Origin: Escherichia coli
GTDB lineage: Bacteria > Pseudomonadota > Gammaproteobacteria > Enterobacterales > Enterobacteriaceae
Length of the DNA stretch: 64,000 nt
Direction: 5' to 3' (one strand)
NCBI RefSeq assembly: GCF_001677475.2
Contig: NZ_CP015229.1
Below, piece after piece: positions 2,767 through 12,877 of the stretch. The notes beneath the pieces were generated by a model. It made no database searches. It saw nothing but the letters and a program-made list of their open reading frames with translations, and was not told where the DNA came from. Position 1 is the stretch's first letter, and each line of letters begins with the position of its first letter. The translations under genes were made by a program, and so were the position numbers.

Positions 2767-4107
2767 TCAATGACGGCCGAAAACGGGACGTTTACGGTCA
2801 AAGGTCCAGCCGGGGATCAGGTACTGCATCGGACCTGCGTCGTTACGCGCACCGCCAAGCAGACGTTTATAGGCTTCATGCGCCTTTTGTACCTGCTCCC
2901 AGTCCAGTTCCACGCCCAGACCGGGCGCATCAGGAACGGCAATTTTTCCGTTTTTAATCTCCAGCGGATTTTTGGTCAGGCGACAATCTCCCTCCTGCCA
3001 AATCCAGTGGGTATCGATAGCGGTAGGATTACCCGGTGCCGCCGCACCCACATGGGTAAACATCGCCAGAGAGATATCAAAGTGGTTATTGGAATGGCAG
3101 CCCCAGGTCAGCCCCCAGTCGTCGCAAAGCTGCGCTACGCGGACTGCACCGGAAAGCGTCCAGAAGTGCGGGTCGGCAAGTGGAATATCTACCGCATTGA
3201 GCATCACCGCATGGCCCATTTCGCGCCAGTTGGTGGCGATCATGTTAGTCGCGACGGGCAAGCCGGTCGCCCGTCGAAACTCCGCCATCACTTCACGTCC
3301 GGAGAAACCCTGTTCTGCGCCACATGGATCTTCGGCATAGGTGAGAACATCATTCAGCCCTTTGCACAGATAAATGGCTTCATCAAGCAGCCATGCACCG
3401 TTGGGATCAACGGTAATTCGCGCATCCGGGAAGAGTTTCTTCAATGCACGAACAGTGTCGATTTCTTGCTCGCCAGGTAACACTCCGCCCTTAAGTTTGA
3501 AATCTTTAAAGCCATAGCGATCCTGTGAGGCTTCCGCCAGACGTACAACGGCTTCGCTGTTCATCGCTTTCTGATGCCGCAATTGATACCACTCATGGTT
3601 GCCCGGCGTATTTTCCAGATAAGGAAGATCGGTTTTGGTCCGATCACCGATATAAAACAGATAACCGAGGACGGTAATAGCATCGCGTTGCTTGCCTGGC
3701 CCTAACAGTTCGCAGACCGGAACATTCAGCGCCTTACCTAGCAGGTCAAGCAAGGCGGCTTCCAGCGCCGCCACGGCATTAACGCGCAATTCAAAAGTCC
3801 AGGCACCTTTGCCGAAGGTATCAAAATCGGCTGCCTGATTACCTTTATGCACCTGCTGGACCACTTTATTCAGGCGCGCAACTTCCTGGCCCAGAACCAT
3901 CGGAATAGCATCGACAAGCGTCTGATAAATCACCTCTCCGCCTGGCGCTTCACCAATGCCGGAATGTCCGGCATTATCGGTGAGTACCACGATATTGCGG
4001 GTGAAATATGCGTCATGTGCACCACCAATATTAAGCAACATGCTATCGTGCCCGGCGACCGGAATGACTTTCATATCAGTAATAACAGGACTGGATTGTG
4101 TCGTCAT
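2767..4107 (-). CDS. gudX: Glucarate dehydratase-related protein (GudD paralog), 446 aa
   Basis: ORF 2767..4107; strong similarity to adjacent GudD along whole length (e.g. [38 protein letters not shown] motifs); 4-nt overlap with gudD start. Confidence 0.92.
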
Positions 4108-4108
4108 C

Positions 4109-5461
4109 TTATTGCCCCGCGACAGGTTTCAGCTCGATACGCTTGATATCGCCCACCAGCACCAGGTAGCTCAGTACCGCGATTAAGGCATGAACACCAA
4201 CATAAATCAGCGCCCCATTAAAGGAGCCAGTCGTGCCAACGATATAACCAATTGCGATTGGCGTGACGATGCCAGAAATGTTACCGAACATGTTGAACAG
4301 GCCACCGGAAAGACCGCTGATCTCTTTTGGCGCGGTATCTGCCATTACTGCCCAACCTAGCGCCCCGATGCCCTTACCGAAGAAGGCCAGCGCCATAAAG
4401 CCGATGATCATCCACTCAACATTGACGTAGTTGCAGAACACCATCACCATCGACAGCAACATGCCCATTACGATCGGTGTTTTACGCGCAATGTTCAGCG
4501 ATCCCGTGCGGCGCATCAGCCAGTCGGAAATAATCCCACCCAGCACACCGCCGATAAAACCGCAAACCGCCGGAACGGAAGCCACAAAGCCCGCTTTCAG
4601 AATCGACATCCCACGCGCCTGCACCAGATAAACCGGAAACCAGGTAATGAAAAAGTAAGTCAGGGCGTTGATACAGTACTGACCGATATAAACGCCGATC
4701 ATCATCCGTGACCCGAGCAGCTGTTTGATCTGCCCCCACTTCACGCTGAACGGCACTTTAACTTTGGTATTTTGCTGATCCATATTGATCAGCGCGCCAC
4801 CCGCGGCGATGTACTCCAACTCTTTCTGATTTACACCCGGATGTTGATTTGGCTCGTGGATGACTTTCAACCAGATAAAGCTGATGACAATGCCCAGACC
4901 GCCCATAAAGAAGAAGACGTGTGACCAGCCCACTTCATGCGTCAGCCAGCCCATAATCGGCGCGAAGATCACCGTTGCGAAGTATTGAGCGGAGTTAAAA
5001 ATCGACACCGCCGTTCCCCTTTCCTGCGCCGGAAACCAGGCCGCAACAATGCGACTGTTGCCGGGGAAAGATGGCGCTTCAGCAAGCCCGACCAGGAAGC
5101 GCAGCGTAAACAGGGCAACGATAATGCCGAATCCACTAAAGATATCGACGAAGCCTTGCAGCAAGGTAAACATCGACCAGATAAAGATCGACCAGAAGTA
5201 GACGCGTTTTGAACCAAAACGATCCAGCAACCAGCCACCTGGGATCTGCCCGATAACATAAGCCCATGAGAAGGCAGAGAACACATAGCCCATTCCCACG
5301 GGATCAAGGCCGATATCTTTGGCCATTTCCGAACCGGCAATAGAAAGCGTAGCGCGGTCGCCGTAGTTGAAGGATGTGACGATAAACAACATCACCACTA
5401 TCCAGTAACGAGCATTCGTGCGTTTTTCCACACTGCTCGCAGCCTGACTTAAAGAACTCAT
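4109..5461 (-). CDS. gudP: MFS transporter for D-glucarate/galactarate, 450 aa
   Basis: ORF 4109..5461; hydrophobic multi-TM protein, MFS signature; position upstream of gudXD. Confidence 0.92.
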
Positions 5462-9667: not shown

Positions 9668-11032
9668 TTGATTACACATATTAGCCCGCTTGGCTCCATG
9701 GATATGTTGTCGCAGCTGGAAGTGGATATGCTTAAACGCACCGCCAGCAGCGACCTCTATCAACTGTTTCGCAACTGTTCACTTGCCGTACTGAACTCCG
9801 GTAGTTTGACCGATAACAGCAAAGAATTGCTGTCTCGTTTTGAAAATTTCGATATTAACGTCCTGCGCCGTGAACGCGGCGTAAAGCTGGAACTGATTAA
9901 TCCCCCGGAAGAGGCTTTTGTCGATGGGCGAATTATTCGCGCTTTGCAGGCCAACTTGTTCGCGGTTCTGCGTGACATTCTCTTCGTTTACGGGCAAATC
10001 CATAACACCGTTCGTTTTCCCAATCTGAATCTCGACAACTCCGTCCACATCACTAACCTGGTCTTTTCCATCTTGCGTAACGCTCGCGCACTGCATGTCG
10101 GTGAAGCGCCAAATATGGTGGTCTGCTGGGGTGGTCACTCAATTAACGAAAACGAGTATTTGTATGCCCGTCGCGTCGGGAATCAGCTGGGCCTGCGTGA
10201 GCTGAATATCTGCACCGGCTGTGGTCCGGGAGCGATGGAAGCGCCGATGAAAGGTGCTGCGGTCGGACACGCGCAGCAGCGTTACAAAGACAGTCGTTTT
10301 ATTGGTATGACAGAGCCGTCGATTATCGCCGCTGAACCGCCTAACCCGCTGGTCAACGAATTGATCATCATGCCGGATATCGAAAAACGTCTGGAAGCGT
10401 TTGTGCGTATCGCTCACGGTATCATTATCTTCCCTGGCGGTGTGGGTACGGCAGAAGAGTTGCTGTATTTGCTGGGAATTTTAATGAACCCGGCCAACAA
10501 AGATCAGGTTTTACCATTGATCCTCACCGGCCCGAAAGAGAGCGCCGACTACTTCCGCGTACTGGACGAGTTTGTCGTGCATACGCTGGGTGAAAACGCG
10601 CGCCGCCATTACCGCATCATCATTGATGACGCCGCTGAAGTCGCTCGTCAGATGAAAAAATCGATGCCGCTGGTGAAAGAAAATCGCCGCGACACTGGTG
10701 ACGCTTACAGCTTTAACTGGTCAATGCGCATTGCGCCAGATTTGCAAATGCCGTTTGAGCCGTCTCACGAGAACATGGCTAATCTGAAGCTTTACCCGGA
10801 TCAACCTGTTGAAGTGCTGGCTGCCGATCTGCGCCGTGCGTTCTCCGGTATTGTGGCGGGTAACGTAAAAGAAGTCGGTATTCGCGCCATTGAAGAGTTT
10901 GGTCCTTACAAAATCAACGGCGATAAAGAGATTATGCGTCGTATGGACGACCTGCTACAGGGTTTTGTTGCCCAGCATCGTATGAAGTTGCCAGGCTCAG
11001 CCTACATCCCTTGCTACGAAATCTGCACGTAA
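9668..11032 (+). CDS. ppnN: Nucleotide 5'-monophosphate nucleosidase (LOG-family), 454 aa; TTG start
   Basis: ORF 9668..11032 begins with TTG preceded by aaggag RBS; LOG-family PGGxGTxEE motif ([13 protein letters not shown]). Confidence 0.88.
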
Positions 11033-11041
11033 TCTCCCTCC

Positions 11042-11075
11042 CCCGGTGACGTTTGTTGCCGGGTTTTCTCGTTTT
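11042..11075 (+). terminator. Putative terminator downstream of ppnN
   Basis: cccgg..ccggg hairpin followed by ttttctcgttttt. Confidence 0.45.
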
Positions 11076-11587
11076 TGGTCACATACCCATCAATTTATTT
11101 CATTTGTTATATGAATGTTTCTTACCACCATCACGCGATAAATATCATTACAGTTAATATGTCATACAATTTATGTTGTAACGCAAACGTTTTCCTATTT
11201 TCATAAACCACATTTTATCGCTATGAAAAAGAAATTATCGCCATGATTAACTAAAAGTATTGATTTTTTCAGTTCAACCTACATATATTGCGCGCCCCGG
11301 AAGAAGTCAGATGTCGTTTAATGGGCAAATATTGCCCTTAAATTCTCTTTTACTTTTGATTTACAGAGTAAAGCGTTGGGATAATCTATCTTCCAAGTAG
11401 ATTATTGTATTTGGGATCAAGATCACTGATAGATACATAACTTGTGTGTATCTTTCCGCCCTCAAATTATTACGGCGGTAAATGATTAAGCCATCGCCGA
11501 TAGACAGATTTCATTTTTACGGTCAGGCACCTTCCCGGGCTGAACTGGCTAAAAGCTGAATTATTTGCATTCCTCCAGGAGAAATAG

Positions 11588-12877
11588 ATGGAAACGACTC
11601 AAACCAGCACGATTGCGTCGAAAGACTCTCGTAGTGCCTGGCGCAAGACAGACACCATGTGGATGCTGGGCCTTTACGGCACGGCAATCGGCGCGGGCGT
11701 GCTGTTCCTGCCAATCAACGCCGGTGTTGGCGGTATGATCCCGCTGATCATCATGGCTATCCTTGCGTTCCCGATGACATTTTTTGCACACCGCGGCCTG
11801 ACTCGCTTCGTACTGTCTGGTAAAAACCCAGGCGAAGACATCACCGAGGTTGTAGAAGAACACTTTGGTATTGGCGCAGGTAAACTGATTACCCTGCTCT
11901 ACTTCTTCGCTATCTACCCGATCCTGCTGGTTTATAGCGTGGCAATCACCAATACAGTTGAAAGCTTCATGTCTCACCAGCTGGGTATGACACCACCGCC
12001 GCGTGCGATTCTGTCGCTGATCCTGATCGTGGGTATGATGACCATCGTTCGCTTCGGTGAGCAGATGATCGTTAAAGCGATGAGTATTCTGGTATTCCCG
12101 TTTGTTGGCGTACTGATGCTGCTGGCTCTGTACCTGATCCCGCAGTGGAACGGCGCAGCACTGGAAACGCTGTCTCTGGACACTGCATCGGCAACCGGAA
12201 ACGGTCTGTGGATGACCCTGTGGCTGGCAATTCCGGTAATGGTGTTCTCGTTCAACCACTCTCCGATCATCTCTTCTTTCGCTGTTGCGAAGCGTGAAGA
12301 GTACGGCGATATGGCAGAACAGAAATGCTCGAAGATCCTGGCATTCGCACACATCATGATGGTGCTGACCGTAATGTTCTTCGTCTTCAGCTGCGTACTG
12401 AGCCTGACTCCGGCAGACCTGGCTGCGGCTAAAGAGCAGAACATCTCGATTCTGTCTTACCTGGCTAACCACTTTAACGCACCGGTTATCGCGTGGATGG
12501 CTCCGATTATCGCGATTATCGCTATCACCAAATCCTTCCTCGGCCACTACCTGGGCGCACGTGAAGGCTTCAACGGTATGGTGATTAAATCTCTGCGTGG
12601 TAAAGGTAAGTCTATCGAAATCAACAAGCTGAACCGTATCACTGCGCTGTTCATGCTGGTAACGACCTGGATTGTTGCCACCCTGAACCCGAGCATCCTG
12701 GGTATGATTGAAACCTTGGGCGGCCCAATCATCGCGATGATCCTGTTCCTGATGCCGATGTACGCAATCCAGAAAGTACCGGCAATGCGTAAGTACAGCG
12801 GTCACATCAGCAACGTATTCGTTGTCGTGATGGGTCTGATTGCAATCTCCGCAATCTTCTACTCTCTGTTCAGCTAA
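11588..12877 (+). CDS. sdaC: Serine:H+ symporter, 429 aa
   Basis: ORF 11588..12877; multi-TM HAAAP-family transporter; RBS ccaggaga upstream. Confidence 0.93.

Follow-up and report, generated by a model that had tools for sequence, protein, structure and literature searches.

Results

The ppnN-sdaC spacer is long, AT-rich, and a conserved property of the locus

Within the window, the 64,000-nucleotide stretch of Escherichia coli DNA analyzed here, translation of the open reading frames (ORFs) around the region of interest identified QueF, PpnN (YgdH), SdaC, SdaB, and Xni. The stop codon of ppnN ends at 11032 and the ATG of sdaC begins at 11588, leaving a spacer of exactly 555 bp (11033-11587); its counterpart in K-12 MG1655 spans 2927673-2928228 (556 bp), and window positions are converted to MG1655 (U00096.3) coordinates by adding 2916641. 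The terminator, promoter elements, palindrome hairpin, and leader features described below are given on the plus strand of the window, and binding sites and the AT-rich block are given without orientation.

A sequence-only reading of this DNA had called the spacer an AT-rich noncoding region of 555 bp and an unusually long gap, and both descriptions proved accurate. Its GC content is 36.9%, compared to 51.7% for the window and 51-52% for the flanking genes, and only 0.35% of 555-bp windows across the 64 kb are equally AT-rich. Of the 47 gaps that separate features in the surrounding 50 kb of K-12 it is the longest, ahead of fucA/fucP (546 bp, between divergent genes) and gudP/yqcA (434 bp). 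The fucA/fucP gap serves divergent promoters, while the ppnN-sdaC spacer separates co-directional genes. RefSeq lists no feature between ppnN and sdaC in K-12 or in the closest strain. The spacer is core E. coli DNA, matched at 90-100% identity in 5425 of 5426 complete genomes, and no annotation lies beneath it in any of those 5425.

We scanned for SdaC in one genome per species and obtained 80 Enterobacteriaceae loci. Because 76 of these keep ppnN directly upstream of sdaC, with spacers of 436-648 bp, we regard a long spacer as something that the locus has conserved. Across the 76 loci, the E. coli spacer is conserved very unevenly (overall mean identity, 0.45): the first 110 bp past the ppnN terminator are essentially unalignable, the middle is patchy, and the best-conserved block lies at 11396-11485 (mean identity, 0.77-0.80), with the Shine-Dalgarno region forming a second conserved stretch. 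In every genus the 11396-11485 block reads GATTATTGcATTTGnGATCnnnGATCACTGATAcAT...ATGTATCTTTCCGCC. Distances to the sdaC ATG are held in most genera for three elements discussed below, namely, the start of a PurR box (~405 nt), the start of a motif, TGGTAGCCTTCGCGCC (~264 nt), and the center of a CRP-like site (~165 nt). The conservation check that had been proposed for the spacer thus found a nearly invariant core promoter block, while no ORF is kept and neither is the palindrome.

ppnN is followed by an intrinsic terminator

A terminator scan placed an intrinsic terminator at 11042-11073, immediately inside the spacer, consisting of a 9-bp GC-rich hairpin (11042-11063) followed by TTTTCTCGTT; the fold has a free energy of -14.9 kcal/mol (z = -2.8). 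Published Term-seq data put the primary 3' end of ygdH (ppnN) at MG1655 2927709/10, which is window position 11068/9. Its features are those of intrinsic terminators: a GC-rich stem of 9 bp closed by a 4-nt loop, with a T tract behind it and a 3' end that has been mapped. The same 3' end recurs in a second supplementary table of the Term-seq paper with a ratio of 2.2, and reading that table as the bicyclomycin (Rho) comparison suggests that Rho acts on read-through too. Transcription of ppnN would then stop at the intrinsic terminator, with Rho probably removing read-through as well.

The mapped sdaC start lies downstream of an invariant CRP-like site

SMRT-Cappable-seq (one dataset) assigns b2796 and the unit b2796-b2797-b2798 a single start at 2928102, corresponding to window position 11461, and also reports a read-through unit that runs from the ppnN start into sdaC. 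The start at 11461 is preceded by a core promoter, which we designate P2 (11426-11454), with a -35-like CTGATA at 11426-11431, a 17-bp spacer, and a -10 element, TATCTT, at 11449-11454. TATCTT ends 7 nt ahead of the mapped start and has the A at position 2 and the T at position 6 that are characteristic of a class II -10 element. Of 77 sequences, 76 have the arrangement CTGATA-17-TATCTT or something close to it (7-8 of 12 matches), and the last has 6 of 12; TGTATCTTTCCG is identical in 60 of the 76 loci.

A CRP-like site at 11409-11430, with its core TGGGATCAAGATCACT at 11412-11427, is centered at 11419.5, that is, at -41.5 from the mapped start, which is the class II position. Its core agrees with TGTGA-N6-TCACA at 8 of 10 positions, a level of match that occurs at chance frequency in the 64 kb (25 found, 25.3 expected). 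Across the 76 loci the half-sites TGnGA/TCACT hardly change, while variation is seen at the third base and in the 6-bp spacer; invariant contact positions around a varying spacer are the pattern expected if this is a real CRP site. We base the assignment on position, conservation, and the reported CRP control of sdaC (PMC10882989, PMC7213987), not on the pattern or a footprint, and infer that CRP acts via this candidate site at -41.5.

P2 would accordingly be read as a class II CRP-type promoter, in which the CRP-like site at -41.5 overlaps CTGATA, a poor -35, with the -10 TATCTT and the start at 11461 farther downstream, and cAMP-CRP bound at -41.5 would recruit RNA polymerase to an otherwise poor promoter. 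The galP1 and melR promoters are examples of class II CRP-dependent sigma-70 promoters. Compared with these, P2 has the same CRP-type site at -41.5 over a weak -35, the same recognizable -10, and a gene dependent on cAMP-CRP (for the definition of the class, see PMC10882989). It differs in its left half-site, which is TGGGA here (TGAGA in K-12) rather than TGTGA, in a pattern that is at chance level, and in that CRP binding is putative.

The 127-nt leader carries covarying hairpins and the ArcZ site

From the SMRT-Cappable-seq start, the sdaC 5' untranslated leader spans 127 nt (11461-11587). Two helices in this leader first came to our attention in single-sequence folds and were then tested by explicit pair counts. 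In the E. coli fold, hairpin A (11473-11499) pairs CGGCGGU with AUCGCCG around a 13-nt A/U-rich loop, and hairpin B (11521-11561) pairs UCAG (11523-11526) with CUGA (11556-11559). In most genera hairpin B is longer, with GUCAGG paired to CCUGAC; in E. coli it is cut down to 4 bp plus a G-U pair, and it is missing from the shorter leaders of Klebsiella, Raoultella, Trabulsiella, and Yokenella. For hairpin A, other genera have an equivalent helix with changed sequence. Both hairpins recur when 29 diverse leaders are folded one by one; A lies close to the 5' end and has a large A-rich loop, and B is located 20-60 nt before the Shine-Dalgarno sequence.

Pair counts bore out both helices. In a structure-blind alignment, the two helices together were 69% paired, compared to 59% in shuffles and 18-42% when the partners were slid against each other, and all 12 pairs change on both sides. 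A covariance-model alignment of 78 leaders gave 73% paired, compared to 59% for shuffles and 16-45% for slid helices, although an alignment fitted to the structure favors the pairing figure. Taken separately, helix A is 61-67% paired across the family, with 6 of 6 pairs changing on both sides, and helix B is 78-79% paired, with 6 of 6 pairs compensatory (one pair is GC in 38 sequences, AU in 17, UA in 4, and CG in 3). The E. coli leader as a whole folds no better than shuffled sequence (z = +0.48), and RNAalifold applied to a plain MAFFT alignment of the leaders returned almost no consensus structure (-0.57 kcal/mol). The hairpins correspond to no described family and gave no match in Rfam 15. 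We read them as what may be ordinary stabilizing or accessibility elements of a leader regulated by a small RNA (sRNA).

That sRNA is ArcZ, which represses sdaC by pairing at mRNA positions -13 to -2 (Papenfort 2009, as summarized in PMC11331407). The Shine-Dalgarno region at 11572-11587, CCUCCAGGAGAAAUAG, contains this pairing site: the ArcZ sequence 5'-UUUCCCUGG is complementary to CCAGG(A)GAAA at 11575-11584, in agreement with the published site, and TCCTCCAGGAGA is identical in 50 of the 76 loci. The predicted duplex of ArcZ with the initiation region has an energy of -13.7 kcal/mol, a value equaled by 49 of 500 shuffles, and an unrestricted duplex search over the whole leader did not single out the site. 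Set beside the ArcZ-repressed mRNAs (sdaC, tpx, and STM3216), the site shows no difference, being the published sdaC target itself. According to the published work, ArcZ together with Hfq masks the ribosome-binding site under aerobic or stationary conditions. The suggestion of a long regulated leader in the sequence-only reading was therefore correct as to regulation, by ArcZ at the ribosome-binding site, but not as to length, the leader from the one mapped start being 127 nt rather than 500 nt.

YieP, PurR, and Lrp sites lie in the distal spacer

The regulator sites that had been supposed to lie in the spacer are present: in addition to the CRP-like site at -41.5, it contains two YieP sites, a PurR site listed by ChIP-chip, and Lrp binding. 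An IPOD-HR study observed an orphan occupancy peak in the spacer, and YieP was purified on that peak (PMC8282354); pull-down with a bait ending at window position 11334 gave only YieP and UlaR, and binding of YieP to the spacer was confirmed by gel shift (PMC8282354). Both site sequences reported in that paper were found in the window, as ATTTGTTATATGAAT at 11102-11116 (site 1) and as ATATGTCATACAATT at 11157-11171 (site 2), the latter coinciding with the IPOD-HR and ChIP-exo occupancy peak. In a lacZ reporter of 2927672-2928228, scrambling both sites had the same effect as deletion of yieP (PMC8282354). Site 1 falls where the spacer varies and has gaps in other genera.

A PurR operator, ACGCAAACGTTTTCCT, lies at 11181-11196. 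It matches the 16-bp palindromic consensus ACGCAAACGTTTGCGT, with its central CG, at 14 of 16 positions, and it is the sole match with at most 2 mismatches in the 64 kb, where 0.04 would be expected. The consensus search found this box independently of the ChIP-chip listing. Purine-responsive occupancy in vivo comes from the literature and was not computed here: in the PurR ChIP-chip study of Cho 2011, the "sdaC-sdaB" region was among the strongest peaks, with a log2 enrichment of 2.08 with adenine and 0.83 without, and the motif given for it, AGGGAAACGTTTGCGT, corresponds to 11181-11196 in the K-12 allele, read as the reverse complement. In genera with at most 4 mismatches, the box starts 386-413 nt before the ATG. 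Which half-site is the better one differs by genus, the right being perfect in Klebsiella and the left in E. coli, and this switching, as seen in the aligned loci, argues for selection on PurR binding.

For Lrp, a repressive EcoCyc site has been placed ~200 bp downstream of the YieP peak (PMC8282354), and ChIP enrichment has been reported at sdaC and ygdH (PMC2689187). The approximate EcoCyc site falls in an AT-rich block upstream of the CRP-like site (11355-11411), which also contains the invariant GATTATTG at 11400-11407 and in which conservation climbs to 0.8 from 11403 on.

In the mechanism that we propose, the ~350 bp of AT-rich upstream DNA, carrying the two YieP sites, the one PurR site, and the Lrp sites along with P1 and the young palindrome described below, would be coated by Lrp and other nucleoid proteins that damp the promoter, with relief by leucine or rich medium; the binding is published, and the damping is proposed. 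Together the YieP and PurR sites span positions ~270-360 bp ahead of the mapped start, with ~290 bp to YieP and ~270 bp to PurR. Simple activation or repression would not reach that far, and direct contact with polymerase is less likely. More probably, YieP and PurR modulate the complex of Lrp and nucleoid proteins or block read-through and P1 transcription, although this is the weakest part of our account.

An Escherichia-specific promoter element and palindrome lie in the middle of the spacer

The best sigma-70 match within the spacer in our promoter scan is a sigma-70-like element, designated P1 (11260-11289), with TTGATT, an 18-bp spacer, TATATT, and a GC-rich discriminator (9 of 12 matches). 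Its predicted start, if any, would be near 11296 (MG1655 2927937). The 9-of-12 match is restricted to four Escherichia sequences among the 77 compared. A second promoter-like match, at 11356-11385, is no more than chance would give (2 found, 1.9 expected), and inspection by eye for a sigma-32 promoter, which the literature has implicated, found no convincing CTTGAA/CCCCAT pair.

P1 has been brought to attention by suppressor genetics. When a cya mutant is plated on MacConkey-maltose, two insertions recur, +A at 2927924 and +ATT at 2927928, which increase expression of sdaC and permit growth on serine. The insertions map to window positions 11283 (+A) and 11287 (+ATT), at the edge of and inside the P1 -10 element, and by our own reading the +ATT insertion converts TATATT to a perfect TATAAT. 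A 2024 paper takes P1 for the sdaC promoter and states that no sdaC promoter has been experimentally verified to date.

Downstream of P1 is the near-palindrome that had also been singled out from the sequence, GGGCAAATATTGCCC at 11323-11337. It is real, with perfect 6-bp arms around a 3-nt center (extendable to 11-nt arms at 82%), and its occurrence is close to chance level: each shuffle is expected to contain 1.7 short-looped inverted repeats with perfect 6-bp arms (P = 0.73), and a GC-rich one in such AT-rich DNA is less expected (P about 0.06). Together with its pairing flanks (11316-11343), it folds into a 12-bp bulged hairpin of -10.4 kcal/mol (z = -3.3; unmatched by any shuffle), with a T-rich tract after it that extends to ~11362. 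The predicted hairpin resembles a weak terminator for P1 or read-through transcripts. It differs from intrinsic terminators in having 4 G-C pairs, a bulge, and an interrupted U tract, and in that Term-seq mapped no 3' end at it.

These features allow an alternative in which P1 is the main sdaC promoter and produces a leader of ~290 nt, with the palindrome hairpin (11316-11343) and its U-rich tail serving as an attenuator or pause site and the CRP-like site falling within the leader. The hairpin outfolds all 200 shuffles and is followed by UCUCUUUUACUUUU, but no Term-seq 3' end maps to it; P1 is the best sigma-70 match in the spacer, but the SMRT-Cappable-seq table lists no start near 2927937. 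Published up-mutations hit the P1 -10, and their authors annotate P1 as the sdaC promoter; these mutations were, however, selected without cAMP, and a native promoter dependent on CRP would be inactive in such cells. In addition, P1 and the palindrome are found only in Escherichia, whereas the downstream promoter block is family-wide. We consider it unlikely that P1 is the main promoter and continue to favor P2. Up-mutations that appear in a cya mutant are what one would expect were the native promoter CRP dependent. On this view P1 would be a weak promoter, cryptic or minor, that evolution improves when cAMP-CRP, and hence P2, is unavailable. Of the multiple promoters suggested by the sequence-only reading, what stands is one mapped start plus read-through from ppnN; P1 is known from up-mutations, is specific to Escherichia, and has no start in SMRT-Cappable-seq.

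The window strain and K-12, TUM9975, and Escherichia sp. MOD1-EC7003 all keep the palindrome intact; strain N64 has one arm altered by a C-to-T change, and in E. whittamii and the cryptic-clade strain SCPM-O-B-8794 the left arm differs and the palindrome is broken. Because it is intact only in E. coli and its closest relatives, it is young. Other genera have TGGTAGCCTTCGCGCC at the palindrome's distance from the ATG, with at most 3 mismatches in 55 of 76 loci, a motif that Escherichia lacks in the 76-locus comparison. TGGTAGCCTTCGCGCC has sigma-54-type GG-N10-GC spacing without the rest of the consensus and is missing from E. coli. Two readings of the palindrome itself were rejected: as a sigma-54 promoter (TGGGCA-N-TTGCC), its GG-to-GC spacing is one base short by eye, and as a CytR-like site (GCAA-ATA-TTGC), each of its half-sites has one mismatch, and tandem CRP sites do not flank it.

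One could also take GGGCAAATATTGCCC for the operator of a dimeric transcription factor that controls sdaCB in E. coli only. Its arms are perfect, a GC-rich repeat is somewhat unexpected here (P about 0.06), and it occupies the position of the motif conserved in other genera, but short perfect inverted repeats are expected by chance, and to our knowledge no known factor has a motif that matches it. It is unchanged across the window strain, K-12, and TUM9975, yet it is broken in E. whittamii and one cryptic-clade strain and altered in one arm in N64. The pull-down bait ending at 11334 reported only YieP and UlaR (PMC8282354). An operator function thus appears improbable, chance is a fair explanation of the palindrome, and the comparison of loci does not support a conserved role for it. 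We hold as a long shot the broader idea that Escherichia remodeled the distal portion of a family-wide sdaC control region whose spacing is otherwise rigid, losing TGGTAGCCTTCGCGCC and gaining the palindrome or hairpin and P1, and that this, possibly along with the leader hairpins, created a lineage-specific device such as an operator or a conditional attenuator of transcripts from P1 and of read-through.

The spacer is not found to encode a small RNA or peptide

The sequence-only reading had also raised an unannotated sRNA or peptide, and neither suggestion was upheld. A scan of 10500-12200 against Rfam 15 with E values up to 10 gave no match in 11033-11587, the three weak matches (E values of 4-9) falling inside sdaC, and the Term-seq tables list no 3' end between 2927710 and 2928350. 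What the spacer has in the way of an sRNA gene is promoter-like and hairpin-like only, confined to Escherichia, with no start, no 3' end, and no Rfam match. An independent sRNA of ~55 nt running from P1 to the palindrome hairpin as its terminator could be drawn from the promoter-like element and the hairpin with a U-rich tail 30-60 nt farther on, but with 4 G-C pairs the stem is weak, the U tract is not continuous, neither end is mapped, Rfam has no match, and the arrangement is not conserved beyond Escherichia; we consider such an sRNA very improbable.

For coding potential, we tested 21 ORFs of at least 10 codons on both strands against 73 non-Escherichia loci. The longest (46, 43, and 34 codons) have TTG starts. 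None of the 21 is kept intact in those loci except one 11-codon frame, in keeping with the earlier remark that the spacer has no credible ORF. That frame coincides with the invariant CRP-like site, ahead of the mapped start. Translation of a small protein or of a regulatory upstream ORF (uORF) from the spacer might instead be sought in the 25-codon ORF at 11482-11559, which starts with ATG and sits within the mapped 5' leader. Among the 73 non-Escherichia loci, however, its start codon is kept in 3, its frame in 6, and the intact ORF in none, so the pattern is not that of a leader peptide or uORF attenuator; the G of the start codon at 11482-11484 is almost never kept and has near-zero conservation. 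We give this possibility almost no credence.

Discussion

Collectively, these data indicate that the spacer serves to control how the sdaCB (L-serine transporter/deaminase) operon is transcribed and translated, a reading to which we assign a probability of roughly 85%; we found nothing else in it. The evidence, from this work or the cited papers, comprises the terminator 3' end, the start, the occupancy by YieP, PurR, and Lrp, the ArcZ site, the places where the up-mutations fall, the pattern of conservation, and the covarying leader hairpins.

Control regions of amino acid catabolic operons that answer to several regulators include those of gcvTHP (Lrp, PurR, CRP, and GcvA) and tdcABC. The sdaCB spacer resembles them in being long AT-rich DNA that binds Lrp, PurR, and CRP (for CRP, here a candidate site) and that links the use of serine and glycine to carbon, nitrogen, and purine status. 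It differs in that its PurR box lies ~270 bp upstream of the start and not over the promoter, in the addition of the GntR-family regulator YieP, and in lying between co-directional genes rather than divergent ones. Like sdaC-sdaB, gcvTHP is present in the PurR ChIP table (Cho 2011).

We regard the spacer as an ordinary multiregulator promoter region, the major parts of which are already published or textbook knowledge. The additions made here are small: the mapped start coincides with a family-invariant CRP-like site at -41.5, and P2 is separate from the mutated element. The fixed distal spacing across genera, the covarying leader hairpins, and the lineage-specific origin of the palindrome are likewise new but small.

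The SMRT-Cappable-seq start, the CRP dependence of sdaC, and the cya-suppressor insertions fit together if sdaC is natively expressed from a class II CRP promoter at 11426-11461. If this is true, the cya insertions would improve a separate, Escherichia-specific upstream element located 165 bp away. A correct map of the sdaC promoter would help the engineering and modeling of serine use, with little beyond a tidier annotation and no new question raised. The operon that it serves, sdaCB, is relevant to serine detoxification, survival on glucose exhaustion, and gut colonization.

A family motif at the position of the palindrome

The palindrome seen in Escherichia (11323-11337) occupies the exact position of a motif found in other Enterobacteriaceae. 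This motif, TGGTAGCCTTCGCGCC, is conserved in most Enterobacteriaceae: it is present with 0 to 3 mismatches in 55 of the 76 loci that have ppnN directly upstream (L006-L082), lies about 264 nt before the sdaC ATG and aligns to 11322-11337. It resembles an extended -10 element (TGnTAGCCT), and a GG-N10-GC spacing can also be recognized in it.

The palindrome core (CAAATATTGC, 11326-11335) forms a 10-nt direct repeat with the -10 region of the promoter-like element P1 (CATATATTGC, 11282-11291), 44 bp away. A second direct repeat, TTATCGCTATGA and TTATCGCCATGA (11215-11226 and 11235-11246; 20-bp spacing), lies between the PurR box and P1, and the TTATC of its first copy is kept in other genera. 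Another promoter-like sequence, TTGATT-18-GATAAT with TG in front of it, occurs at 11356-11385. It is restricted to Escherichia and lacks a mapped start, and matches of this kind are as numerous in the region as expected by chance. At the core promoter itself, an inverted repeat (GATAGATACA and TGTATCTTTC, 11428-11456) covers the interval from -35 to -10, with a counterpart, GATACAT...ATGTATC, retained in other genera. This repeat could be an operator overlapping the core promoter.

Variation in the spacer and leader

Comparison of the spacer with that of K-12 revealed 13 differences, 12 of them base substitutions. Eleven of the 13 (11/12 base substitutions) are grouped in 130 bp (11083-11211), around the YieP sites and within the PurR box (T/C at 11193), and 11212-11587 contains one difference. 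At most of the clustered positions, the K-12 allele also occurs in other E. coli strains. In E. coli 23AR0151 (locus L083), an IS903B copy (3838-4894) has replaced the start of sdaC along with 220 bp of the distal spacer, and RefSeq records this sdaC as a pseudogene without its N-terminus. In the group formed by Klebsiella, Raoultella, Trabulsiella and Yokenella (loci L008, L009, L011, L017-L020, L023, L027, L043 and L049), the sdaC leader is about 20 nt shorter and entirely lacks hairpin B (11521-11561).

Read-through from ppnN

The ppnN 3' end (11069 onward; MG1655 2927710) also appears in a second Term-seq supplementary table (ratio 2.2, P = 8e-10), which we read as a bicyclomycin comparison; if so, transcripts would also be terminated by Rho within the untranslated spacer. 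SMRT-Cappable-seq also includes a ppnN-sdaC read-through unit.

Spacing of the distal sites

Across all loci, with 11181-11427 as the corresponding interval here, distances to the sdaC ATG are preserved in most genera (about 405 nt from the PurR box start, 264 nt from the family motif start and 165 nt from the CRP centre), while the sequence between the sites has turned over. Such preserved spacing may point to a nucleoprotein complex that is looped or phased.
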